From the NCBI GenBank assembly GCA_012514235.1, contig JAAZAR010000035.1:6997-70996 (forward strand): DNA of 64,000 bases, given 5' to 3'. This DNA is from Actinomycetota bacterium (GTDB lineage: Bacteria; Actinomycetota; Thermoleophilia; UBA2241). Under the pieces are notes generated by a model. That model saw nothing but the letters and a program-made list of their open reading frames with translations, had not been told where the DNA came from and ran no database searches. Shown one piece after another: positions 23,428-64,000 of the stretch. Both the position numbers and the translations under genes were made by a program. Position 1 is the stretch's first letter. Each line of letters starts with the position of its first letter.

Positions 23428-24903
23428 ATGCAGCCGCCGAAGGGAGTCTCCATCCAGCTGACGAGCTACGCATTCCTGTTCGCCTTCCTGCCTGTCACGC
23501 TCCTCGTGTACTGGCTACTGCCGCGAGGCGTGTGGCGACTCGCGTTCCTCGTGCTCGCATCGTGGGTCTTCGTGGGCTGGTACGACTGGCGGTCCGTGTT
23601 CATCATGGTCGGCGCCACCTTCGTCGATTGGGCGGCGGCGCTGCTCATCGCCCGCTCCTCCCGACGGCCGCCGTCCGGCGCCCCGGCCGGCGCGGACGGC
23701 GCTTCCGTCGGAGACGCCGGCCGTCGCCGCGCGATCCTCGTCCTCGCCCTGCTCGCCAACGTCGCGATCCTCGGCTACTTCAAGTATCGCGGCTTCTTCC
23801 TCGACTCGCTCGACGGCCTCGGCTCCTGGATCGGCCTCGACCTCGATCTGCCGGCGCTCAAGGTGCTCCTGCCGCTGGGCATCTCCTTCTACACGTTCAG
23901 CGCCATGAGCTACGTGATCGACGTGTACCGGGGGGATGCGCCCGCCACCCGGAGTCTCCTGCGGTACGCGGCCTTCATCGCCCTCTTCCCGCGCGCCATC
24001 GCCGGCCCCATCCTGCGCTGGCGCGACGTGGAGGGCGACTTCGCGGACCTGCCGCGCCGCCTGACGACGCGTCTGGCGGCGCTCGGGCTCTTCTTCATCG
24101 CCTGCGGCATGGCCAAGAAGCTCCTCGTCGCCGACGTCTTGCTGCCGCGCGTGGACGAGCTCTTCGCCAACGCCGCGAACCTCCGCTTCTTCAGCGGGTG
24201 GGCCGCCGCCCTCGGCTACTCCCTTCAGCTCTACTTCGACTTCAGCGGCTACTCGGACATGGCCGTCGGCATCGCGTACCTGCTCGGGTTCCACTTCCCC
24301 CAGAACTTCGACTCGCCGTACAAGGCAGCCAACCCCAGCCAGTTCTGGCGGCGCTGGCACATGACCCTCTCGTTCTGGCTGCGCGACTACGTATACATCC
24401 CGCTCGGCGGCTCGCGCCGCGGCATGAGCGTCACCGTGCGCAACCTCATGCTCACGTTCATCGTCGCCGGCATCTGGCACGGCGCGGGCTGGACGTTCAT
24501 CGTCTGGGGCCTCCTGCACGGGCTCTACCAGTCGGTCCACGCGGTGGCCCGGTCGAAGGGCATGACCCCGAAGAGCCAGTGGCTGAACCGCGGACTGACC
24601 TTCGTCGCGGTGGTCGTGGCGTGGGTGTTCTTCCGCGCCTCCACGCTGGAACAGGCCTGTCACGTGCTCAAAGCCATGACCGGCCTGAACGGCCTCGGGA
24701 GCCTCTACTCGGCGAAGGTGCAGATCGGCTACGCGTTCACGCTGCTCATCGTCGCCGGGCTCGCGTGGGTCAACCTGGCGCCGAACACGTGGGAGATCGA
24801 GCCGCGACCGACCTGGAGGTACGGCGTCGTCTTCGGCCTGCTGCTCGGCGCCGCCGTGCTCGCGATGGGCAAGCCGGCGGAGTTCGTCTACGTGCAGTTC
24901 TAG
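23428..24903 (+). CDS. MBOAT-family membrane O-acyltransferase (AlgI/DltB-like); solitary
   Basis: True start is the ATG at 23428 (MQPPKGVSIQL...), inside the longer ORF 22810..24903. Multi-TM protein with the MBOAT His region (WRRWHMTLSFWLRDY). Confidence 0.8.
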   Translation: MQPPKGVSIQLTSYAFLFAFLPVTLLVYWLLPRGVWRLAFLVLASWVFVGWYDWRSVFIMVGATFVDWAAALLIARSSRRPPSGAPAGADGASVGDAGRRRAILVLALLANVAILGYFKYRGFFLDSLDGLGSWIGLDLDLPALKVLLPLGISFYTFSAMSYVIDVYRGDAPATRSLLRYAAFIALFPRAIAGPILRWRDVEGDFADLPRRLTTRLAALGLFFIACGMAKKLLVADVLLPRVDELFANAANLRFFSGWAAALGYSLQLYFDFSGYSDMAVGIAYLLGFHFPQNFDSPYKAANPSQFWRRWHMTLSFWLRDYVYIPLGGSRRGMSVTVRNLMLTFIVAGIWHGAGWTFIVWGLLHGLYQSVHAVARSKGMTPKSQWLNRGLTFVAVVVAWVFFRASTLEQACHVLKAMTGLNGLGSLYSAKVQIGYAFTLLIVAGLAWVNLAPNTWEIEPRPTWRYGVVFGLLLGAAVLAMGKPAEFVYVQF

Positions 24904-51423: not shown

Positions 51424-52557
51424 TCAGCGCGGAGCGGCATCCGGCCGGGTGGCGAGCGGCGGCGGCGCCATCGCCACGTCCGGGCCGGTGAGCGCAGACG
51501 CCAGCCGGCGCGCCATCTCCGGCTGCCACTTGAGGCGCGCCGGGGCCAGCAGGTGGAAGAGGTCGGCGAAGTCGTGGTCAGTGAGGTCGACCTCGATGCG
51601 CGGGTACGGCACGCCGTAGCGGGCCGCCAGCTCGCGGGCGCGCTTCTGGTAGGCCGGCACGACCCCGTTCCAGTCCGGGCCGGCCGCCGATGCGTTGAGC
51701 GGCTGGTCGTACAGCACCACGTCGAACCCGCGCTCCTCCGCGAGCTTGAGGATCTCCTCGAGCATCGCGAAGTTGTAGTCGGCGTGCTTGCGGTACAGGA
51801 TGACGTCCTTCTGCAGCACGTACAGCACGTTGCGGCGCTTGCCGAGCTGCGTGTGTCCCTTCGCACCCCAGGGGTAGTAGTGCGTCTCGTACTCGATCGG
51901 AGTACCCCACAGCTTGCCGGTGGCGGCCCGCTCCTTGAGGTACGTGCCCACGTAGTCGAAGATGCCCGGGATCTGCCCCGTCACCGGGACCGTCCTGCCG
52001 AAGTACCGCGGCCCCAACTGCGCCAGCCGCGGGCTGCGCACGAGCAGCGTGTGGCCGCTGAGCATCTGCGCGTCGCGACCCGGAGAGCCGGTGACCCGGA
52101 TCGGGGCCAGGCCGATGGCGAGCGTGGCCGGACCCGGCGGCAGGTTGTCGACCAGCGCCAGCGTCATCGCCATGCTCTGCTGGTGGGCGGCGAGGCTCAC
52201 GACCCGGACGGGCTCCCCCGCCTCGCGGCTGATCGCGGCGCCGAGCGAGGCCTCGCTGACGAAGCACTCCATGGTGCCGGAGCCGCCGAAGAGGTACACC
52301 GTGCGCGTCTGCGGCGGCTCCTTGTTGAGTTCCTGCACACGCACCGAGACGTGCACGTAGTCGTCGTGCGTGATGCGCAGCAGACGGCCCTCCTGCACGA
52401 GGGTGAGGCCGCCGCCGAAGAGCAGCGCTTGCGCGCCGAAGAGGGCGGCGGCGGCGAGCGCCGCAGCCGCGACCAGCACAAGCGGACTGCGCTGGCGGAA
52501 CCCGAGCCTGAAGGATCGCCGGCGGTGAGCGCCCTCTACGTCACGCACACTCATCAT
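51424..52557 (-). CDS. DltD-like / SGNH-like membrane-anchored protein, paralog 3
   Basis: N-terminal TM anchor (SPLVLVAAAALAAAALF), FGGSGTMECFVS (SGNH block-I-like Ser), DNLPPGP and a C-terminal YGVPYP...DLTDHDFADLFHLL (DxxH). Paralogous to 53938..55008 and 55008..56078. Confidence 0.55.
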   Translation of the reverse strand: MMSVRDVEGAHRRRSFRLGFRQRSPLVLVAAAALAAAALFGAQALLFGGGLTLVQEGRLLRITHDDYVHVSVRVQELNKEPPQTRTVYLFGGSGTMECFVSEASLGAAISREAGEPVRVVSLAAHQQSMAMTLALVDNLPPGPATLAIGLAPIRVTGSPGRDAQMLSGHTLLVRSPRLAQLGPRYFGRTVPVTGQIPGIFDYVGTYLKERAATGKLWGTPIEYETHYYPWGAKGHTQLGKRRNVLYVLQKDVILYRKHADYNFAMLEEILKLAEERGFDVVLYDQPLNASAAGPDWNGVVPAYQKRARELAARYGVPYPRIEVDLTDHDFADLFHLLAPARLKWQPEMARRLASALTGPDVAMAPPPLATRPDAAPR

Positions 52558-52609
52558 CCTCGCTGGACCGTCTCCCACATGGTGTCACAGGTCCGACGCC
52601 GAGGCGCCT

Positions 52610-53941
52610 TCAGGGGTCACGACGAGGGCTCTGGCTGCGCCAGAGGCGCGCGACCGCGACGACCAGGACGAGGGCGAGCGCGACGGCGGCCGCGACGAGC
52701 AGCACGCCGGGAGCCTGCTGCAGAGGCAGCCGGAAGACGTTGTACGCGATCTTCAGACCCTGCTCGAAGCTGGCCGTGGAGACGAAGGCGTAGCCCAGGG
52801 CCACGTACAGGAAGGTCACCGGGTACCCCAGCCACTTCGTGTACCGTTCGTAGCTCGCCGCCGGCGGGAGGCCCGCCTTCTTGCGCTTCTTGCGGCGGGC
52901 CCTCTTCCACCGCTCCCAGCGAGCCACGACGACGAGTCCGGTGCCGTGCCAGAGTCCCCAGAACGTCCAGTTCAGGTCGACCGCGTGCCACAAGCCCATC
53001 ACCAGCATGCTCGCGTACAGGCCCAGCCACGTCTTGCGCGTCAGGCCGAACACCGGGAAGTAGACGTTGTTGCGCACCCAGGTGCTGAGCGAGATGTGCC
53101 AGCTGTGCCAGAAGTCGCTGAGGTTCTTCTGCCAGAACGGGAAGTGGAAGTTCTCCATGATGCGGAACCCGAACAGGCGCGAGAAGCCGACGGCGAGATC
53201 CGTGTACGCCGAGAGGTCGAAGTAGGCGCGCACGAAGACGATGATGCAGTAGGCGAGGGGCCACCACCACGCCACCTCGTTCGCGTTGAAGTCCGTGCGT
53301 CCGATGGTCGAGGTGATGTCGCCGAAGAAGATCGGGAACATGAAGTCGACCACGAAGACCTTCTTGAAGTAGCCGAGGGCGATGCGCCGCACGCCGTAGT
53401 AGAACTCCTGGCGGTCGAAGCCGACGGTGCGCTTCTCGTAGAAGCCCTGGTAGGTCTCGAGCGGCCCCGCCGGGAATGTGGGGATCCACATGATGAAGGC
53501 GGCCAGCCGCAGCAGGTCGTTCTCCTTGATCACGCCGCGCGCGCAGTCGAACACGTACTGCAGCATGCGGAAGACGAAGTAGCTGATGCCGAGCGGCATG
53601 ATGAGGTGAGTGACCACCCAGTCGCCCTCGTTCCAGAACACGAGGGCGCCGTCGCGTCCGTACTTGCCGATCCCGAGGGTCACCAGCGCGAGGACCACCG
53701 CGATGAGGACGGTCCTCGCGCCGCGCAGCTTCTGACGGCGCATGGCCTCGACCAGCTGGTGCGTGACCACCACGAGGCCCAGGGCGATGCCGGCGAAGAT
53801 CGGATGCAGCGCCGCCAGCACGCCCACGCTCACCACCAGCATGAAGACCAACCGGTGCGTTTCCTTGCGCAGCAGCAGCCAGAACGCCAGCAGCGAGAAG
53901 ACCACTACCGGGATCAGGTACAGCGTGAAGTAGATCTTCAC
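52610..53941 (-). CDS. MBOAT-family membrane O-acyltransferase (DltB/AlgI-like)
   Basis: 443 aa and about 11 TM helices. Conserved MBOAT histidine region FWHSWHISLSTWVRNNVY. Its GTG start overlaps the stop of the upstream DltD-like gene. Confidence 0.8.
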   Translation of the reverse strand: MKIYFTLYLIPVVVFSLLAFWLLLRKETHRLVFMLVVSVGVLAALHPIFAGIALGLVVVTHQLVEAMRRQKLRGARTVLIAVVLALVTLGIGKYGRDGALVFWNEGDWVVTHLIMPLGISYFVFRMLQYVFDCARGVIKENDLLRLAAFIMWIPTFPAGPLETYQGFYEKRTVGFDRQEFYYGVRRIALGYFKKVFVVDFMFPIFFGDITSTIGRTDFNANEVAWWWPLAYCIIVFVRAYFDLSAYTDLAVGFSRLFGFRIMENFHFPFWQKNLSDFWHSWHISLSTWVRNNVYFPVFGLTRKTWLGLYASMLVMGLWHAVDLNWTFWGLWHGTGLVVVARWERWKRARRKKRKKAGLPPAASYERYTKWLGYPVTFLYVALGYAFVSTASFEQGLKIAYNVFRLPLQQAPGVLLVAAAVALALVLVVAVARLWRSQSPRRDP

Positions 53942-55008
53942 CCGCCACTCCCTCCAGATTCGGCGGCATTGAGGAGCGGTACGAGCTCCCTCGCCAGTGC
54001 ATGTTGCCAGATGACGCGCCCGGGCGCGATGAGGTGCGAGAGGTCCTGGAAGTCACGGCTGGGGATGTCGACCGTCTCGTTGAGGTCGATGTACGGATAG
54101 CCGTACTCGTCCGCCAGCTTGGCGACCGGGATCTTGTACTTGCGCTGCGACGAGACGAAGGCGTCCTTCACGATCTCCTTGTTGAGCGGCAGCTCGAGAA
54201 GCACGACGTTCACGCCCCGCTCCCTGACCTTCCGCAACAGCTCCTCGAGCATCTGGAGATTGGCGACGCGGTTGCGCTCGAAGACGGGCTTGCGGCTCGT
54301 GTTCCATCTCTTCACGAGCCGCCTCTTGTGACCGTCCGAGCGCCGCGTCTTCTCCGAGTAGCGGTGCAGCTCGTACTCGGTGCTCGGCGTTCGACCGTCA
54401 AGCAGCGACCCGCCGTGCTTGCGCATCCAGTCGGTGACGTAGGCCCAGATGCCCGGCAGGATGGTGAACTGGTACTTCTCCAGGCCCCAGCGCGACGACA
54501 CGAACGACCGCACCGCGTCGCTCTTCAGCAGGAACTCGCGCCCCTGGCCCTGCTCCGCGTTCTCCTCCCTCGTCGCCGTGAAGCGGCCGAGGTTCACCCC
54601 CAGGAGCAGCCAGGCCGGCGTGTCCGGCGCGCTCTCCAGCACGCTGAGGCTCTCGGCGAAGTTCTGGTTGATCGAGCCGAGGTTGTAGACGGCGACGCGG
54701 GGGCCGCCGAGTCCTTCGATCTCGGCGGCGAGCGCGTCGCCGCTCACGATGCTCTCGCGCGCGCTCGAGCCGCCGACCAGATAGAGGCCCGGCATGTCGG
54801 GCTTGTCCTGCCGGGCCCTGCCCACCTGCCAGGAGACGTAGGTGAACGAGTCCTCCGGGTTGCGCAGAGCGGTGTCCAGTGGGACCACGGTCCAGGCACC
54901 GCTCGTGAACAGCCACTCGAAGCCCAGGAGCGCCGGCACGAGCAGGAACGCCGCCGCGATCAGGACGAGCGGATGGCGGTTGCGGAACCCGCGGCCGAAG
55001 GCGCTCAT
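53938..55008 (-). CDS. DltD-like / SGNH-like membrane-anchored protein, paralog 2
   Basis: Start at ATG 55008 (MSAFGRGFRNRHPLVLIAAAFLLVPALLGF...), overlapping the stop of paralog 1 (ATGA). Carries LVGGSSARESIVS, ESAPDTPAWLLLGVNLGRF and YGYPYIDLNETVDIPSRDFQDLSHL. Confidence 0.55.
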   Translation of the reverse strand: MSAFGRGFRNRHPLVLIAAAFLLVPALLGFEWLFTSGAWTVVPLDTALRNPEDSFTYVSWQVGRARQDKPDMPGLYLVGGSSARESIVSGDALAAEIEGLGGPRVAVYNLGSINQNFAESLSVLESAPDTPAWLLLGVNLGRFTATREENAEQGQGREFLLKSDAVRSFVSSRWGLEKYQFTILPGIWAYVTDWMRKHGGSLLDGRTPSTEYELHRYSEKTRRSDGHKRRLVKRWNTSRKPVFERNRVANLQMLEELLRKVRERGVNVVLLELPLNKEIVKDAFVSSQRKYKIPVAKLADEYGYPYIDLNETVDIPSRDFQDLSHLIAPGRVIWQHALARELVPLLNAAESGGSGG

Positions 55009-56078
55009 CAGAGCTCCGTCCTCAGCGTGCCGTCCGCATACAGCGCCGCCAGCCGTCGTGCGAGCTCGGCTTGCCACGCAGCCCGCCCCGCCGGCCGCAG
55101 GTGCGAGAGGTCGAGGAAGTCCTCACTCGGGATGTCGACCTCGTCGTTGAAGTCCAGGTACGGCACGCCGTAGCGCTCGGCGATGGCCGCCGTCCGCGCC
55201 CGGTAGGCGGCCATCGCCTCGTCGAAGGCGTCGCCGACGACCTCCCGGTTCCAGGGCAGCTCGACGATGACGATGTCGAGACCCCGGCGCTTGCCCTCGG
55301 CGACGAGCCCTTCGAGCATCTCTGCGTCGAACTCGTGCACCTTGCGGAACGCCGGATAGTACCTGGTCAGCCACTTCTGCACGAGCTCGCGTTTCCGCTC
55401 GTCGGAGAGGGTCTTGCGCCCGTCGAAGGGGTGCGGCTTGTACGGCCGGGCGTGCAGGCGGCCCTTGTACAGGAGGTCCTTCTCGCGCTGCTGCAGATAC
55501 GACGTCAGGGCCGAGAAGATGCCGGGCAGGATCGTGTACGAGTGCGCGTGCTCGCCCGAGTAGTCCGTGACCCAGCGGCGCAGCGAGTCGCTCTGGAGCA
55601 GCAGCTCGCGCCCGATGACCTGGTTGTAGTTGCTCTTCGGGCTGGTGGTGAAGCGGCCGAGGTTCACGCCGACCAGCACCGTGGTCGGCGTGTCGGGCAG
55701 GTTGTCGACGATCGCCCAGCTCTGCGCGTAGCGCTGCATCCGGGAGCTGAGGTTGCGGGCCGTGACCGTCGGGCCGCCCTCCGCCTGGATCGAGCGCGCC
55801 AGCGACGGGCCGCTGACGATAGCCTCGCGGCCGCTCGACCCGCCCAGGAGGACCACGAGCGGGGTGCTGGGCGGGTCCTGCTTGAGCCGGCCGACCATCC
55901 AGGAGACGACCATGTAGTCGTCGGTCGAGGTGCGCACCCAGCGCTGCACGGGTACGGCGCTCCAGGCGCCGCTCGTGAACCAGCTCTGAAGACCGAGAAG
56001 CGCCGGCACGAGGAGCGCCAGCGCCACGACGAGCACCAGGGGGTGTCTGTTGCGCAGGCCCCTGCGGAAGCTGTTCAC
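55008..56078 (-). CDS. DltD-like / SGNH-like membrane-anchored protein, paralog 1
   Basis: MNSFRRGLRNRHPLVLVVALALLVPALLGL (TM anchor), LLGGSSGREAIVS, DNLPDTPTTVLVGVNLGRF and YGVPYLDFNDEVDIPSEDFLDLSHL. About 35-40% identity to paralog 2 by eye. Confidence 0.55.
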   Translation of the reverse strand: MNSFRRGLRNRHPLVLVVALALLVPALLGLQSWFTSGAWSAVPVQRWVRTSTDDYMVVSWMVGRLKQDPPSTPLVVLLGGSSGREAIVSGPSLARSIQAEGGPTVTARNLSSRMQRYAQSWAIVDNLPDTPTTVLVGVNLGRFTTSPKSNYNQVIGRELLLQSDSLRRWVTDYSGEHAHSYTILPGIFSALTSYLQQREKDLLYKGRLHARPYKPHPFDGRKTLSDERKRELVQKWLTRYYPAFRKVHEFDAEMLEGLVAEGKRRGLDIVIVELPWNREVVGDAFDEAMAAYRARTAAIAERYGVPYLDFNDEVDIPSEDFLDLSHLRPAGRAAWQAELARRLAALYADGTLRTEL

Positions 56079-56094: not shown

Positions 56095-57651
56095 TCACCC
56101 GAGCTCCTCGGCGAGCAGCTTGTGCAGCTCGGCCCTGATCGCCTTTCCGGATCCGGTGCGCGGGATCTGCTCCACGGCGATCACGCGGCTGGGCAGGGAC
56201 GTGGAGGGCAGCACGCCGCGCAGCTCGCGCAGCAGTCTCGAAGCCTTGAAACCCTCCGGCTCGTTGGGGACGACGAAGGCGACCGGGACGTGGCCGAGGA
56301 TGTCGTCGGGCGCGGCCACCACGGCCACGTCGGCGAACCGTCCCAGGCCCTGCAGCGCCTCCTGCACGTGGATGATGCTGACCTTCTCGCCGCCGCGCTT
56401 GATGATGTCGTCCTTGCGGCCGGCGATCCACACCGCGCCGCTCTCGTCGACCTTGCCGAAGTCGCCCGTCTTGAGGCCGTGCTCCGTGAGCGTGACGGCG
56501 GTGATCTCCGGCTCGTCCAGGTACCCCTGCATGAGCAGCGAGCCGGTGACGTACAGCTCGCCCTGCTCTCCGGGCGCGGCCTCTGTGAGGTCGCCGCGCC
56601 TCGCGACGACGCGCATGTCGGCGATGGGGCGGCCGACGGAGCCCACCTTGACGTCGAGCTCGGCCGGCGGCAGCACGCACAGCCGGCCGCTCACCTCGGT
56701 GAGGCCGTACATGTTGAACAGGCTCACGCCGGGCAGCACGCGGCGCAGCTTCTCGATCACGGGGAGCGGCAGATGGTCGCCGCTGCTGATCCAGAAGCGG
56801 AAGGGGTGCTCTCGCGGCTCCTCCATGGGCTCGACCACGCGGACCAGATGGGCCGGAGCGCCGCCGAACCCCGTGCAGCCCTCGGCCTCCATCTCGTCGA
56901 GGAGGCCGGTGCCGAAGTAGAAGCCGAGCTGGCCGGCCACGCCGCCGCCGTTGGCCAGCAGCGTCAGGAAGTGACAGATGCCGCTGGTGAAGTACGGCGG
57001 CGTGTTGATGAAGATGCGGTCGTCCGGACCGAGCCCGAGCACCTGGGCGACGTGCCCCGCGTTGCTCGAGACGGCACGGAGCGTCTGGCAGACGCCCTTC
57101 GGGACTCCGGTCGTGCCGGACGTGAACATGATCATCGCGAGCTCGTCCTCGCCCACCGCCTCGAGCTCGCCCTCGTGCCGGGTGCCGTCTCCGGGCCGGT
57201 CCGCGGACGCGGCTGCGCCGCCGACCACACACACGCCGTCCACGAGCCCGTCACGGCCGGCGGTGACGACGAGGCGCAGCGGACCGCCGGCGGCCGTCGG
57301 GCAGGCTTCCTCGCCCGGCAACACGATCACGTCCGGGGCGGACTTGTCGACCAGCCAGTCGAGGTCGGCCTGCGGCAGGCTCACGTTGAGCGGCACGACC
57401 ACCTGGCCGGCCAGCCAGGCGCCGAGCATGCACACGAAGAACTGGTCGTACTCCTCGAGCACGAGCGCGACGCGGGCGCCGCGCCGGCCGGCGGCGGCCA
57501 GCAGGGCCGCCGCCACCCGCGTCGCCCGCTCCTCCACCTCCGCGTACGTGTACACGCGGCCGCGCGTGCGGAGGAGCGTCGCCTCCGGTCGCTCGGCCGC
57601 CCAGCGGCGCAGGCGCGCGACGGCGTCGGTCATGAGCGGTTGCGGCGTCAT
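56095..57651 (-). CDS. AMP-binding adenylation enzyme (DltA-like carrier-protein ligase / acyl-AMP ligase)
   Basis: 518 aa with classic ANL core motifs FTSGTTGVPKGV, YGLTE, GELYVTGSLLMQGY, TGDFG and GRKDDIIKRGGEKV. About the size of DltA. Confidence 0.75.
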   Translation of the reverse strand: MTPQPLMTDAVARLRRWAAERPEATLLRTRGRVYTYAEVEERATRVAAALLAAAGRRGARVALVLEEYDQFFVCMLGAWLAGQVVVPLNVSLPQADLDWLVDKSAPDVIVLPGEEACPTAAGGPLRLVVTAGRDGLVDGVCVVGGAAASADRPGDGTRHEGELEAVGEDELAMIMFTSGTTGVPKGVCQTLRAVSSNAGHVAQVLGLGPDDRIFINTPPYFTSGICHFLTLLANGGGVAGQLGFYFGTGLLDEMEAEGCTGFGGAPAHLVRVVEPMEEPREHPFRFWISSGDHLPLPVIEKLRRVLPGVSLFNMYGLTEVSGRLCVLPPAELDVKVGSVGRPIADMRVVARRGDLTEAAPGEQGELYVTGSLLMQGYLDEPEITAVTLTEHGLKTGDFGKVDESGAVWIAGRKDDIIKRGGEKVSIIHVQEALQGLGRFADVAVVAAPDDILGHVPVAFVVPNEPEGFKASRLLRELRGVLPSTSLPSRVIAVEQIPRTGSGKAIRAELHKLLAEELG

Positions 57652-57667
57652 CCCGATGGCGAAGCGC

Positions 57668-57865
57668 TCAGAAGCCGACGTAGCGGAACTCGGTGAGCTT
57701 GCCGCCCACGAGCACGGCCACGGTGATGGCCAGGAACAGCAGGAACCAGAGGAACGTCTGCAGGCTCAGGCCGAGGAGGTAGCAGAACCGGTGACCCCCG
57801 GCAGACGTCGACGGCGTGTCCTCGGCAGCCGCCGTAGGCCCCTTGTCTTCTCCCGCCTCAGGCAT
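57668..57865 (-). CDS. DltX-like membrane microprotein with C-terminal FxYxxF motif
   Basis: 65 aa: MPEAGEDKGPTAAAEDTPSTSAGGHRFCYLLGLSLQTFLWFLLFLAITVAVLVGGKLTEFRYVGF*. It has a single TM helix and ends in FRYVGF. It sits between the carrier-protein gene and the adenylase gene and overlaps the carrier stop by 8 nt. Confidence 0.45.
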   Translation of the reverse strand: MPEAGEDKGPTAAAEDTPSTSAGGHRFCYLLGLSLQTFLWFLLFLAITVAVLVGGKLTEFRYVGF

Positions 57866-58106
57866 CGCCCGCCTTCTTGCGCGCGATGTAGGCGAGCATG
57901 TGGTTCACGGTGTCGAGGTTCTCGTACACGATGTCCATGGGCTTGACCTTGATGGCGAACTCCTCCTCGAGGAACGCGATGAGCGCCGTGAGGTTCATGG
58001 AATCCAGCAACTGGTCGCGGAAGAGCGAGGTGTCGGGGCTGACCTCGCCGTCTTCCAGGTCGGCCTCGTCGCGGATGAACTCAAGGATCGTATCGGCGTC
58101 GGACAT
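57858..58106 (-). CDS. Acyl/aminoacyl carrier protein, DltC-like
   Basis: 82 aa; LLDSMNLTALIAFLEEEF resembles the DltC phosphopantetheine-attachment region (LLDSFG...LL.AIENRF). A good ribosome-binding site (GGAAGGAAACAGC) precedes the ATG. Confidence 0.7.
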   Translation of the reverse strand: MSDADTILEFIRDEADLEDGEVSPDTSLFRDQLLDSMNLTALIAFLEEEFAIKVKPMDIVYENLDTVNHMLAYIARKKAGDA

Positions 58107-58136: not shown

Positions 58137-58820
58137 TCAGGTGCGGGTGCCCTGCGAGTACGAGAAGACCATGGGGTTCACGAAGCCCGAGGCCTCGACC
58201 CCGGCCTTGATGAGACCGCCGAGGGTGAACACGCGTTCGGCGGTCTGGAACGCCTGCTCGAGCCCCCACTCGTCGCTCCGGATGTGGCCGCGCGCCCCGG
58301 CCCAGCCGTAGGCGCCGAACTGACTGGTGCCGTCGCCGTTGCCGACGACGAGGCAGCCGTTGCGCACGAAAGGAAGCCAGGTGGCGAGGATCGCCGTCTC
58401 GGCTCCGCCCGAACGGCGGCCGGCCGTAGCGAGTACGCCGACCGGCTTGTTGGCCAGCCTGAAGTCCTGATGACGCAGCGGGCGCGTGCGCATGATGAAC
58501 TTGCTGAACAGATCGGACGGCAGGCCGAAGTACACCGGCGTGGCCACGAGGATGCCGTCCGCGGCGACCATGGCGTCGAGCACGCCCTGGACGTCGTCCT
58601 CGTCGGCGCGGACGCAGGGGATGAACGTCCCGTCCTTCTTCTTGCCGCACACGTTGCAGGCCTTGCAGGGTTCGATGTGCAGGTCGCGCAGACTGATGAG
58701 CTCGTGCTCGCACCGGCCCGGGTACTTGGCATCCAGCTTCTCGAACGCCGTCTCGAGCATGATGTTGCTGTTGCTGTTGTCGCGGGGGCTGCAGTTGAGC
58801 CCCAGAAGCCGCACCGTCAT
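58137..58820 (-). CDS. Flavodoxin-like NAD(P)H-dependent FMN reductase / iron-sulfur flavoprotein family protein
   Basis: Start at the internal ATG 58820 (MTVRLLGLNCSPRDNSNSN...). Cys cluster EPCKACNVCGKK. Resembles the flavodoxin-like NADPH-dependent FMN reductase fold. Confidence 0.55.
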   Translation of the reverse strand: MTVRLLGLNCSPRDNSNSNIMLETAFEKLDAKYPGRCEHELISLRDLHIEPCKACNVCGKKKDGTFIPCVRADEDDVQGVLDAMVAADGILVATPVYFGLPSDLFSKFIMRTRPLRHQDFRLANKPVGVLATAGRRSGGAETAILATWLPFVRNGCLVVGNGDGTSQFGAYGWAGARGHIRSDEWGLEQAFQTAERVFTLGGLIKAGVEASGFVNPMVFSYSQGTRT

Positions 58821-58931
58821 GCGCAGCGCTCCTCTCCTGCACGGCCGCCCGGCGAAAGACGCGAGGGCGGAGGGAATCGTGATGGCCCGCAGTGGAGTAC
58901 GGGTATCGAATCCTACCAGACGACAGCCACG

Positions 58932-59018
58932 TGCGCGCATGGAGCGAACGGTGGTGCCGGAGGTGGGACTCGAACCCACACGCCCTTTCGGGCACCCGAT
59001 TTTGAGTCGAGCGCGTCT
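58932..59018 (-). tRNA. tRNA-Leu (anticodon CAA), class II with long variable arm
   Basis: Reverse complement reads GCCGGTGTGGCGGAACTGGTAGAC..CTCGACTCAAAATCGGGTGCCCGAAAGGGCGTGTGGGTTCGAGTCCCACCTCCGGCACCA. It has a T-loop GGTTCGAGTCC, anticodon loop CTCAAAA, encoded CCA and a long variable stem-loop. Positions 6:67 in the acceptor stem are a T:T mismatch. Confidence 0.75.
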
Positions 59019-59206
59019 ACCAGTTCCGCCACACCGGCACGGTGCACGTCAGGCCCTATTCTGACCTATCAGTGCCGTCCCCTGCACGCGCCGGCGCCGG
59101 CGGGAAGACCGGGAACGGCCGCCGGGAGCTCCCAGGAGCTCCCGGCGGCCGTTCCAACGGACACGCACGACGCGCCCGCGCGCGAGGGCGCGTCAGGCAG
59201 ACCGCC

Positions 59207-61434: not shown

Positions 61435-62472
61435 GTGCTGGCGCTCTACCTGCTGCTGCCGCGGCTCGTCGACACCCAGGAGACGCTGCAGTACGTCTCG
61501 CGGGCGCGCTACGCGCTGCTCGTCCTCGCCGTCCTGCTCGAGGTCGCGGCGCTGGCCGGGTACGCCAACCTCTTCCGGTACATCCTCCGCGTGCTCGACA
61601 TCCGCATGCGCCTGCGCGAGGTGTGGGCGATCACGCTGAGCGGCCTCGCCGTGAGCCACATCCTCTCGGCCGGCGGCGTCGGCGGGTGGGTGGTCACCTA
61701 CAACGCACTCATGAAGCACAAGGTGCCGCACGGCATCATCTTCGTCGCGATCGCCGCGCAGCAGTTCTTCAACTACGTGGTCCTGTGGTTCTTCTTCGCG
61801 CTGGCCATCCTCTACCTCATCCTCGTGCGGGGCAGCGACTCCATCTTCGGGTACCTCGTCGGGATCGTCCTCATCGTCCTGATCCTGTGGCTCACGCTCT
61901 ACGGCGTGTACCTCTACAACCGCCCCACTCGCCTGCGCCTGCGCGTCACGCAGGTCGCTCACGCCGTCAACAGGCTGTGGCGGCGCGAGGTGATCAGGGA
62001 GCGTCACGTCGACGGCTGGATCGACAACCTGCTCATCGGCATGCGGCGGATGGTCAGGCACCGCGGGTCGTTCCGCACCACGCTCATGCTCGCCGCCGTC
62101 TTCTGGTTCTTCGACGCGCTCTGTCTCTGGGTGACGTTCCAGGCGTTCGGGTACACGGTCGGACTCGGCCACCTGCTCGTCGCCTACGTGGTGGCCTACT
62201 CCATCGGGACGCTGGCGCCCACGCCGGGCGGTCTGGGCGCCATCGAGGGCCTCATGATCGCCCTCTTCGTGAGCTTCGGCGTCCCTTCGGCGGTCGCGGT
62301 CGCCGTGGTGCTCGTCTACCGCATCATCAACTTCTGGCTGCCGATCCCGCCGGGGTTCGTCGCCTACGCGATCGTGCGGCCGGGGCGCAAGCCCATCCCG
62401 GACGGCGAGTGGCAGGCGGCGGCCTCCGAGGCGCCGGAAGGGCTCTCCGGCCGGCGGCCGGACCGGCCCTGA
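61435..62472 (+). CDS. Lysylphosphatidylglycerol-synthase transmembrane-domain (MprF flippase-like, UPF0104) protein
   Basis: About 8 TM helices; the C-terminal half (GLGHLLVAYVVAYSIGTLAPTPGGLGAIEGLMIALF) matches LPG_synthase_TM family conservation. GTG start; it may begin slightly upstream. Confidence 0.6.
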   Translation: MLALYLLLPRLVDTQETLQYVSRARYALLVLAVLLEVAALAGYANLFRYILRVLDIRMRLREVWAITLSGLAVSHILSAGGVGGWVVTYNALMKHKVPHGIIFVAIAAQQFFNYVVLWFFFALAILYLILVRGSDSIFGYLVGIVLIVLILWLTLYGVYLYNRPTRLRLRVTQVAHAVNRLWRREVIRERHVDGWIDNLLIGMRRMVRHRGSFRTTLMLAAVFWFFDALCLWVTFQAFGYTVGLGHLLVAYVVAYSIGTLAPTPGGLGAIEGLMIALFVSFGVPSAVAVAVVLVYRIINFWLPIPPGFVAYAIVRPGRKPIPDGEWQAAASEAPEGLSGRRPDRP

Positions 62473-62517: not shown

Positions 62518-64000
62518 TCAGTCCAGGCGGTACAGCCTGAGCACCGGCCCGCGCTCGCCCAGGCCCGGCCGGAACTCCTTGACCAGGTCCGCCTCGGCGT
62601 CCAGCTCTTCGTAGAACGCCGCGGCGGTCGGGTAGTCGTCGGCCGCCGCCAGCACGCGCTCCCAGATGCGGCTGCTCACGAGCACGTACTCCACATCCTG
62701 GCCGCGAAGCCAGGCGAGGTCGCGCTGGACGTCCGGCGTCTCGGGCGCCGGCAGCTTGATCCGCAGGAGCCTGAAGGCGACCGGGTGCAGCCCGGCGTCG
62801 CGGTAGTGCTCCAGGTCGTCCTCGTCGACCAGCGGCGCCGTGTAGTTCTCCAGCGCGACATGGGCGCCGGGCGGCAGGTTCTCGTCGATCCAGGCGCGCG
62901 CCACCTCGCGGGTGTCGGTGCCGCTCAGCGCCCTGTCGAAGGCGACGGAGTCCGCAAGAGATGGCGCGAACGCGAGGGCGAGCACCACGGCGGCGGCGCA
63001 CACGGCGACGACCCGCCCCCGCACCCCCGCCCGAGTCCGCGCCCGCTCGACCACCTCGACCACGAGCCGCACGCCCACCAGGAGAAGCAGCGGGACGATC
63101 GGCAGGAGGTAGCGGTCGGCGAGCTCCTTCCAGGTGCCGATGTACACGAAGTAGAGGATGACGTAGGGCGCCACGATCAGGTCCGCACGGGTATGGCGCC
63201 AGAGCGCCCAGGCCAGTCCTGCCGCGGCGAGCACCAGGGCGACCACGCCGATCGCCCCCGTCAGGTTGGGCGTCACGTTGTACCAGAGACCGTTGCCGAC
63301 GTTCTCGAAGCCCAGCCAGCCCCTGTCCATGATCTCCGTCTGGCGGCGGAAGTCGCGGACGAAGTGCGGCGCGTCGAGCAGGACGAACGGGGAAGCGACG
63401 ACGAACGCGGCCAGCATCGGCAGGTAGACGCGCAGCCCCAGGAGGCGAAGCCACACGAGGACGGCGCGGCCGCCGGCGGCGACGCGCCCGGCGGCCTCTC
63501 CCCCGGCGGCGTAGACGGCGGCCACCGTCGCCGGCAGGACGAGCATCCCCAGGTTGTACTTGGTCGAGGTCGCGAGGCCGGCGGCCACGGCGCCGAGCAC
63601 GAGCAGACGCCGGACGCGACGGCCGGACGCGGCGTCCCCCTCGGCGCCGAAGGCCTCCGCCGGTCGCGCCGCCCGGTGCAGCAGCACGAGCGCCAGGAGG
63701 GCGAGGGCGACGGCGGTGACGTCGGTGACCGCCATGTGCGAGTAGGCCACGTGCAGGGGCGACGCCGCCAGGAACAGTGCCGCGAGAAGACCGGCCGGGC
63801 GGCCGAAGGCGTCCCGGCCCAGCCGGTACAGCAGGTAGACGGAGGCGGTCCCCATGGCCACGGAGAGCAGCCGCGCAAGGAGGAAGTAGGGCGCCGGATC
63901 CACGACAAACGACGTCTGGGCGAGCAGGTTGCCGTTGCCGAGCAGCCACCAGACGGGCGCGGCCGCCAGGTAGACCGCCGCGACCAGGTAGAAGAAGAAG
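62518..64000 (-). CDS. GT39/PMT_2-like membrane glycosyltransferase (ArnT/Pmt-like), N-terminus beyond window
   Basis: Multi-TM N-terminal region plus a soluble C-terminal domain. The reading frame stays open to the window edge (…FFFYLVAAVYLAAAPVWWLLGNGNLLAQTSFVVDPAPYFLLARLL…). Confidence 0.6.
   Translation of the reverse strand, partial: FFFYLVAAVYLAAAPVWWLLGNGNLLAQTSFVVDPAPYFLLARLLSVAMGTASVYLLYRLGRDAFGRPAGLLAALFLAASPLHVAYSHMAVTDVTAVALALLALVLLHRAARPAEAFGAEGDAASGRRVRRLLVLGAVAAGLATSTKYNLGMLVLPATVAAVYAAGGEAAGRVAAGGRAVLVWLRLLGLRVYLPMLAAFVVASPFVLLDAPHFVRDFRRQTEIMDRGWLGFENVGNGLWYNVTPNLTGAIGVVALVLAAAGLAWALWRHTRADLIVAPYVILYFVYIGTWKELADRYLLPIVPLLLLVGVRLVVEVVERARTRAGVRGRVVAVCAAAVVLALAFAPSLADSVAFDRALSGTDTREVARAWIDENLPPGAHVALENYTAPLVDEDDLEHYRDAGLHPVAFRLLRIKLPAPETPDVQRDLAWLRGQDVEYVLVSSRIWERVLAAADDYPTAAAFYEELDAEADLVKEFRPGLGERGPVLRLYRLD

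Follow-up and report, generated by a model that had tools for sequence, protein, structure and literature searches.

Shuttling of an acyl group on the tyrosine of an FXYXXF motif has been described for DltX and PatA (PMC12148441), and the motif at the C terminus of DltX has been found to bind DltD (PMC13653941). A shuttle microprotein that is separate from its membrane-bound O-acyltransferase (MBOAT) is known only from the firmicute Dlt pathway; elsewhere the motif is fused to the MBOAT, at a position that is periplasmic, and MBOAT pathways other than Dlt are said to have neither a carrier protein nor a DltX-like microprotein (PMC12148441). In the Gram-negative dlt operons of Dickeya and Pectobacterium, an open reading frame (ORF) in the position of dltX has been reported whose product has the same topology and no sequence similarity to DltX (Kamar et al., 2017; PMC5541007). 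Here we present a computational analysis of a 65-residue microprotein encoded on the minus strand at 57668..57865 of a 64,000-nucleotide (nt) stretch of actinobacterial DNA (contig JAAZAR010000035.1, assembly GCA_012514235.1; the whole stretch is referred to below as the window). The microprotein ends in the hexapeptide FRYVGF, and its gene lies in a cluster with genes for a carrier protein, an adenylating ligase, an MBOAT and SGNH-type proteins. We argue that it is probably a detachable acyl-shuttle subunit, acting through Tyr62, of a Dlt-type, carrier-dependent MBOAT–SGNH acylation machine.

Like DltX (for example that of B. thuringiensis, MERLKEIWSRPLTQWVAKTVYYLAILFALLWLYGFHDTNTSTFIYNEF), the microprotein is small, with a single transmembrane (TM) helix, a short linker and a terminal FxYxxF in which the tyrosine is fourth from the end, and its gene likewise stands in an operon with a carrier, an adenylating ligase, a motif-less DltB-type MBOAT and a DltD-type SGNH protein. 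Unlike DltX, with motifs such as FIYNEF and FLYFGF, it carries FRYVGF with an invariant arginine, and its TM helix has an invariant G-x3-Q-x3-W stripe of its own. Its N-terminal tail is long, acidic and variable where that of DltX is short and basic, and the preliminary description of this locus was correct in remarking on an acidic, Pro-rich tail unlike that of firmicute DltX. Moreover, its gene lies between those of the carrier and the ligase, whereas the DltX gene comes first in dltXABCD, and its host is not a firmicute but a member of the Thermoleophilia (Actinomycetota), with a ligase that is not DltA-like at the amino-binding position. With the C termini of fused MBOATs of the AlgI/PatA/WssH type the microprotein shares the succession of TM helix, short linker and FxYxxF, but it is encoded by a separate gene beside a carrier gene, its partner MBOAT is DltB-sized, and the cluster would use a carrier protein where the published fused-motif systems use acyl-coenzyme A (acyl-CoA). 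The ORFs of the Gram-negative dlt operons, compared here by description only, resemble it in having no DltX sequence similarity and a place in a dlt-like operon outside the Firmicutes, and their products are reported to have the topology of DltX. By their description, the Dickeya and Pectobacterium operons are true homologues of dltABCD that serve D-alanylation, whereas the present cluster has a different type of ligase, an FMN reductase and several SGNH paralogues. The suggestion that the microprotein takes DltX-like proteins beyond the Firmicutes holds for its thermoleophilian host, although, with this Gram-negative precedent (PMC5541007), it is not the first case of its kind.

Results

The microprotein gene and its product

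The gene and its parts are the following.

57668..57865, minus strand: microprotein gene, 65 residues plus stop, encoding the proposed acyl-shuttle subunit; in GenBank, hypothetical protein GX624_03190 (NLE21777.1) of an Actinobacteria metagenome-assembled genome (MAG)
57785..57865, minus strand: N-terminal tail, residues 1–27; variable, acidic, Pro/Ala-rich and predicted to be disordered, with a length that differs widely among relatives
57707..57784, minus strand: TM helix, about residues 28–53, with a hydrophobic core and invariant G32, Q36 and W40
57671..57688, minus strand: C-terminal hexapeptide F60-R61-Y62-V63-G64-F65 (FxYxxF), with the Tyr62 codon at 57680..57682

The ORF extends from an ATG through 65 codons to a TGA and specifies MPEAGEDKGPTAAAEDTPSTSAGGHRFCYLLGLSLQTFLWFLLFLAITVAVLVGGKLTEFRYVGF. 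The length, the single TM helix and the terminal F-R-Y-V-G-F that had been noted from the sequence are exact on the minus strand, the helix being borne out by AlphaFold2, and Tyr62 is the fourth residue from the C terminus, the same offset as that of the DltX tyrosine. As had also been stated, the gene is flanked by a PP-binding carrier gene (57858..58106) and an AMP-binding ligase gene (56095..57651). Its ATG and the carrier stop share an 8-nt overlap (ATGCCTGA), which implies translational coupling, and 16 nt separate its own stop from the ligase ATG.

Among the 848 stop-to-stop segments of at least 30 residues in the window, 0.001 would be expected to end in F.Y..F and two were found to do so, namely the microprotein ORF and a second MBOAT protein (23428..24903), which is considered below. 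The G+C content by codon position is 0.61/0.34/0.97 in the TM and C-terminal part of the microprotein gene, resembling that of the flanking genes; this periodicity is absent in the N-tail (0.70/0.67/0.70). In 27 distinct orthologous DNA sequences, the last 38 codons have 17, 10 and 32 variable sites at codon positions 1, 2 and 3, respectively, and pairwise codon differences in the conserved part comprise 3168 synonymous versus 1299 non-synonymous changes. Arg61 is itself encoded variously by CGC, CGG, AGA and AGG in orthologues, that is, with switches between the CGN and AGR codon families. An Rfam scan of the region matched no family, a PADLOC scan of the microprotein and the flavoprotein gave no match, and a promoter/terminator scan of the operon returned 0 promoter-like sites and terminator-like sites at chance level. 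Judged by these comparisons, the microprotein gene is real and under purifying selection. The concern that its reading frame might be the 3' end of the carrier gene or the 5' untranslated region of the ligase gene is met by the frame-specific conservation, by the gene layout across loci and by the carrier/microprotein overlaps, all of which mark it as a separate gene.

Conservation within the family was found to be concentrated at the C terminus. A word-indexed search yielded 353 homologues, and among the matches listed 120 of 120 end in FRYVGF; when 1.84 billion cluster representatives were searched exhaustively with a profile, 54 clusters at 50% identity were obtained (E ≤0.001). About two-thirds of the C termini of these 54 clusters were read, four retrieved frameshift fusions or truncations being excluded, and the intact retrieved members all end in [E/D/Q]FRYVGF, rarely FRYVRF or FRYVGY. 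The last ~36 residues are nearly invariant among 120 clusters, the N-tail being free to vary in sequence and length, and relatives range from 46 to 103 residues in total. Residues G32, Q36, W40, F60, R61, Y62 and V63 are invariant family-wide, in the wider cluster set, and G64 and F65 are conserved in at least 90%; the terminal motif stays absolutely conserved even in relatives with a diverged helix. Both the ORF and its terminal motif, whose importance had been proposed from a single sequence, are thus conserved in all orthologous clusters examined. No NCBIfam family was returned for the microprotein and no Pfam model matches the family; a literature search for 'FRYVGF' found no papers in the library consulted, and a PDB sequence search gave no match at E ≤10. 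Short relatives with basic N termini (MDKKKF..., MDSKPEKQKK...) stem from low-G+C or otherwise different organisms, which indicates that the family extends beyond the Thermoleophilia.

An AlphaFold2 monomer model based on 46 relatives has a single helix at residues 22–63, with a predicted local distance difference test (pLDDT) score above 90 for about residues 30–50, and residues 1–20 are disordered (pLDDT below 50 at residues 4–19). With their i, i+4, i+8 spacing, G32, Q36 and W40 fall on one helix face, which is presumably a packing surface. In most relatives two to four K/R residues stand just before the helix and the C-tail is about neutral (one R against a conserved E/D and the carboxylate), a charge pattern consistent with an N-in/C-out topology. 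The window microprotein itself is ambiguous in this respect, its N-tail having a net charge of -3 and its K/R residues numbering one on the N side versus two in the C-tail (K56 and R61).

Partner genes in the cluster

The genes that accompany the microprotein gene are listed below in the order of the minus strand, together with the tRNA gene that forms the upstream boundary of the cluster.

58952..59038, minus strand: tRNA-Leu(CAA), upstream boundary
58137..58820, minus strand: FMN-reductase-family flavoprotein, about 227 residues; Pfam FMN_red 3.7e-22; Cys cluster CKACNVCGKKKDGTFIPC; first gene of the cluster
57858..58106, minus strand: acyl carrier protein, 82 residues; PP-binding, PF00550 4.7e-10; serine site LLDSMNL; DltC counterpart
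56095..57651, minus strand: ANL-superfamily adenylating ligase, 518 residues; Pfam AMP-binding 3.3e-64; DltA counterpart
55008..56078, minus strand: SGNH_A, 356 residues; N-terminal TM anchor and extracytoplasmic SGNH domain, DltD-like; Ser81, Asp323 and His326
53938..55077, minus strand: SGNH_B, SGNH_A paralogue with 45% identity
52610..53941, minus strand: DltB-like MBOAT, 443 residues; Pfam MBOAT 3.2e-16; no C-terminal FxYxxF
51424..52578, minus strand: SGNH_C, more divergent paralogue with 36% identity to SGNH_A; same Ser/Asp/His and N-terminal TM anchor

The operon MBOAT is, by sequence, a homologue of DltB and not an equivalog: it matches the DltB model TIGR04091 at 1.3e-45 with 156 bits against a cut-off of 375, its only sequence matches in the PDB are DltB (8jem and 6bug, about 1e-33), and it retains both histidines aligned to His289 and His336 of DltB. 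A C-terminal FxYxxF is absent both from this protein and from its 20 orthologues, which are DltB-sized at 414–417 residues and end in ...RLPLAWIHGVLL. Since the operon MBOAT has no motif of its own, a shuttle motif, if one is used, must come in trans. In the window the C terminus of this protein (52610..52700, minus strand) has a 28-residue extension with an extra hydrophobic helix (...QQAPGVLLVAAAVALALVLVVAVARLWRSQSPRRDP) compared with the 20 shorter orthologues, and this may be peculiar to the present genome or assembly, through a lost stop codon or a frameshift. We considered whether the extra helix could correspond to helix 15 of PatA and rejected this, the extension being missing from the orthologues.

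The SGNH_B start is probably the ATG at 55008, which has one base in common with the SGNH_A stop. The Ser/Asp/His triad is conserved in all three SGNH paralogue groups, which suggests that there may be several acceptors or positions. Sequence comparison of the paralogues with Pfam DltD and with the PDB gave nothing useful, and a PDB search with the SGNH paralogue profile gave no significant matches; the link to DltD comes from fold comparison only. The SGNH_A model (pLDDT 89.4) has DltD as all of its top 12 Foldseek matches in the PDB. On the strength of this model, the proteins have an SGNH fold whose most extensive structural match is DltD, and the cluster SGNH proteins have the build of a DltD-type SGNH transferase with an N-terminal membrane anchor.

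The carrier matches the NCBIfam DltC model NF003464 at 1.8e-7, below its cut-off, and its serine motif is conserved among relatives. The ligase is a generic ANL enzyme, for which fatty-acyl-CoA ligases and LgrA head the matches in NCBIfam and the PDB, DltA being reached only at 2.8e-26. Its A4 motif, NTPPYFTSG (residues 216–224; 56990..57010, minus strand), has Thr where LgrA has a conserved Asp, and this Thr is conserved in 27 orthologues and 3 distant relatives, except for Ala in locus L034. The A4 Asp binds the α-amino group in the adenylation domains of nonribosomal peptide synthetases and in DltA. With Thr or Ala in its place, the cargo would be neither D-alanine nor another α-amino acid, and we conclude that the acyl cargo is probably not an α-amino acid. 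In both its family matches and its A4 residue the ligase departs from a DltA-type D-alanine-specific adenylating enzyme.

The listed ORF of the flavoprotein (58137..58979) runs into the tRNA-Leu gene, so that translation of the protein must begin internally, with Met54 (58820). With its Cys cluster, this FMN-reductase-family protein is one that we take to resemble an iron–sulfur flavoprotein. The FMN_red gene adjoins the carrier gene in 27 of 28 loci and is found also in the distant loci L030, L034 and L035; in L034 the FMN_red domain lies inside a 510-residue protein.

Conservation of the cluster across loci

The microprotein gene was found in 28 loci of species-representative genomes, all of them Thermoleophilia or Actinomycetota MAGs. 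Where the contig reaches far enough for the order to be judged, the cluster runs from FMN reductase through carrier, microprotein and ligase to one or two SGNH proteins, the MBOAT and a further SGNH protein. The 8-nt carrier/microprotein overlap occurs in 22 of 32 microprotein ORFs (loci L001–L035), and some loci without it have 1–4-nt overlaps or short gaps. Distant members of the family (41–51% identity) retain the partner genes in a partly rearranged order, as listed here.

L029 (33% G+C): carrier, microprotein
L032: carrier, microprotein, ligase
L030: FMN_red, carrier, microprotein, ligase
L035: FMN_red, carrier, microprotein
L034 (rearranged): ligase, 370-residue protein, MBOAT, FMN_red, carrier, microprotein
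P0171: microprotein immediately upstream of MBOAT, with carrier and ligase genes downstream

That the association with these partners outlasts rearrangement is independent evidence of a functional link. Scans with Pfam and NCBIfam recognised no protease, cyclase or exporter genes in the cluster.

The loci differ in how many SGNH genes they have. The window and many other loci have three, two between ligase and MBOAT and one after the MBOAT; before the MBOAT there is only one in L013, L016, L022, L024, L026 and L028 and none in L006, L018 and L020. Two or three copies of the whole carrier–microprotein–ligase cluster occur on separate contigs of two MAGs (L008, L009 and L027 in CAVOVA01; L002 and L023 in CAVUGS01), and frameshift-like breaks are present in ligase or SGNH genes at several long-read-assembled loci. 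Locus L029 comprises 560 bp at 33% G+C, and the 24 kb P0171 contig additionally encodes CotH, LTD and Ser/Thr kinase proteins. For one 58,054-bp contig (P0049, the same as locus L007), GenBank (MBE0567442.1) gives Krumholzibacteria and the genome collection gives Thermoleophilia; an inconsistency of binning or taxonomy is probably the cause, and not an occurrence in another phylum.

A second MBOAT with a fused motif

The other segment of the window that ends in F.Y..F provides an internal comparator.

23428..24903, plus strand: second MBOAT, AlgI/PatA type, 491 residues (starting MQPPKGVS), with two extra C-terminal TM helices and the fused motif EFVYVQF

This protein ends in ...GLLLGAAVLAMGKPAEFVYVQF (also given as ...MGKPAEFVYVQF) and matches DltB TIGR04091 at 9.6e-51, below the cut-off. 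When the last 21 residues of the microprotein and of the second MBOAT were aligned end to end (LAITVAVLVGGKLTEFRYVGF versus LLLGAAVLAMGKPAEFVYVQF), 11 of 21 were identical, giving a BLOSUM62 score of 43. By comparison, 24 was the highest score among 1639 other 21-mers from membrane proteins of the window, and none of 100,000 shuffles reached 43. The two C termini thus appear to have a significant end-anchored resemblance, which is not proven homology, and the microprotein looks as if the terminal helix and motif of an AlgI/PatA-type MBOAT had been given a gene of their own.

Judged by eye, the genes on either side of the second MBOAT gene look like those of a cupin-like protein, of pentose-phosphate enzymes and of a large nuclease/helicase-like ORF, with no SGNH gene directly alongside; the second MBOAT might be served by an SGNH paralogue from among the three of the operon at 51–56 kb. 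Two further genes, both envelope-related, lie near the microprotein cluster.

61435..62472, plus strand: LPG_synthase_TM family protein (1.5e-35)
62518..63903, minus strand: PMT_2/ArnT-like GT-C glycosyltransferase (1.6e-12)

Discussion

The microprotein described here has the few-dozen-residue, single-pass size, the terminal FxYxxF with an invariant tyrosine and the Dlt-type partner genes that characterise the DltX class, and from its sequence we regard it as a functional and architectural analogue of DltX that stands outside the DltX sequence family and is not a detectable homologue. We infer the acylation of Tyr62, the N-in/C-out topology, the contacts with the MBOAT and the SGNH proteins and the nature of the acyl group and the acceptor, and the steps of our working model are those of the published mechanism of DltX and PatA (PMC12148441, PMC13653941). 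In this model, the ANL ligase would adenylate a carboxylic acid and load it onto the phosphopantetheine arm of the 82-residue carrier, and Tyr62 of the microprotein would then receive the acyl group from the DltB-like MBOAT by way of the MBOAT funnel. The TM helix would pack against the MBOAT with its G32/Q36/W40 face, and the FRYVGF tail would sit at the outer face of the membrane, from where the acyl-Tyr tail would swing to a membrane-anchored DltD-like SGNH transferase, one of the three, and reach its catalytic Ser. The SGNH transferase would finally esterify an envelope polymer. The proposal in the preliminary description of a true Dlt-type mechanism is supported by the DltB-like MBOAT, the carrier, the ligase and the DltD-like SGNH proteins, and each part of that description that could be checked held, with the qualifications that D-alanine is improbable as the cargo and that homology with DltX is not detectable.

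A number of observations weigh against this model. Alignment with DltX, which had been put forward as a check, revealed no detectable relationship. No match to PF12459 was obtained with the window protein (E ≤1), its 40-residue core (E ≤10) or 32 family members (E ≤10), while B. thuringiensis DltX (sequence from PMC5541007), used as a positive control, matched the same model at 2e-21. BLASTP of the microprotein against DltX gave no alignment at E ≤100, and hhalign of the family against a DltX alignment, a narrow one of only 12 B. cereus-group proteins from a search seeded with B. thuringiensis DltX, returned a probability of 0.6% over 6 columns. The likeness to the second MBOAT is that of a 21-residue ungapped comparison, and the microprotein family hidden Markov model, run against all ORFs of the window, misses the C terminus of that protein. 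The second position of the motif is an invariant Arg in the family and hydrophobic in the characterised motifs (FIYNEF, FLYFGF, FIYANF). The net acidic N-tail leaves the positive-inside argument weak for the window microprotein itself, and the specificity residues of the ligase are not DltA-like, so that the chemistry may differ from D-alanylation.

The main rival to this model, though in our judgement an unlikely one, is that the microprotein is a structural or regulatory subunit concerned with complex assembly or stability or with carrier recruitment, that Tyr62 is never acylated and that the MBOAT gives its acyl group directly to an SGNH protein or a lipid intermediate. Such a role would fit a TM helix that is conserved as strongly as the motif and bears a one-sided G/Q/W stripe typical of helix packing, and it would fit equally the lack of homology to DltX and the atypical invariant Arg of the motif. 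It would leave unexplained, however, why the protein ends in the exact signature of an acyl shuttle, a terminal F-x-Y-x-x-F with the Tyr fourth from the end, why this motif is kept without any exception even in members whose helix has diverged, and why the partner MBOAT is without the motif found in cis in other MBOATs, the second MBOAT of the window having it fused. To the idea that the microprotein is instead the end substrate, O-acylated or otherwise modified in the manner of a lipopeptide or a ribosomally synthesized and post-translationally modified peptide with no transient shuttling, we attach very little weight. A small gene tightly coupled to those of a carrier and a ligase, a variable N terminus followed by an invariant C terminus and a flavoprotein alongside would suit it, but three conserved, membrane-anchored, triad-intact SGNH transferases would then have no role, the scans of the cluster brought to light no gene for a protease, a cyclase or an exporter, and the conserved part is a TM helix and not a leader/core arrangement.

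It is likewise improbable, and to about the same degree, that the topology is reversed (N-out/C-in) and that the motif acts in the cytoplasm, for example by docking the carrier or the ligase at the MBOAT entrance. Translocation of acidic N-tails is established for Pf3-coat-type insertion, and the window protein combines an N-tail of net -3 with K56 and R61 in its C-tail. Most relatives, however, have two to four K/R residues before the helix and a C-tail in which the R is balanced by E/D and the carboxylate, the short members are basic at the N terminus, and fused MBOATs have the homologous position in the periplasm (PMC12148441). That the ORF is no gene at all and represents a chance frame in a high-G+C genome, the 3' end of the carrier gene or a ligase leader is a proposition with next to no chance of being right, having already been refuted by conservation. 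Spurious ORFs are indeed common at high G+C, as the overlapping plus-strand ORF at 56978..57946 illustrates, and the N-tail is without codon periodicity; yet conservation is frame-specific with mainly synonymous change, there are hundreds of homologues with an invariant C terminus, the third-position G+C content of the conserved part is 0.97, no RNA family matched, the carrier ends at a normal length and the ligase starts downstream. A detachable shuttle subunit acting through Tyr62 is the reading that we prefer.

It is possible, though we would put the chance at somewhat below even, that the FRYVGF microproteins constitute a second family of acyl shuttles acting in trans, either independently evolved or anciently split and detached from the terminal helix and motif of an AlgI/PatA-type MBOAT. 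On this proposal they would mark an uncharacterised, carrier-dependent envelope modification in Thermoleophilia and other uncultured lineages, in which up to three DltD-like transferases would deliver a non-amino acyl group, possibly tailored by the co-conserved Fe–S-type flavoprotein, to different acceptors. If true, a second trans-shuttle family would contradict the published claim that non-Dlt MBOAT pathways lack a DltX-like microprotein and a carrier. Quite apart from this proposal, an extremely conserved microprotein of an actinobacterial lineage that ends in the DltX motif and is unrelated to DltX in sequence, encoded beside a motif-less DltB-like MBOAT, a carrier and DltD-like transferases, indicates that the split shuttle arrangement is more widespread than the DltX family. 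It also supplies an annotation rule, by which a small TM ORF ending in FxYxxF beside a motif-less MBOAT is a candidate shuttle, and the invariant motif Arg and the G/Q/W helix stripe point to essential features of such shuttles. For a poorly known class of soil bacteria, the cluster points to an uncharacterised modification of the envelope that would involve a flavoprotein and several transferases and would draw on a non-amino acyl donor. How general the split acyl-Tyr shuttle is and how it evolved become testable, as does this actinobacterial modification, and the family would be a welcome, if not shocking, extension of the shuttle model.

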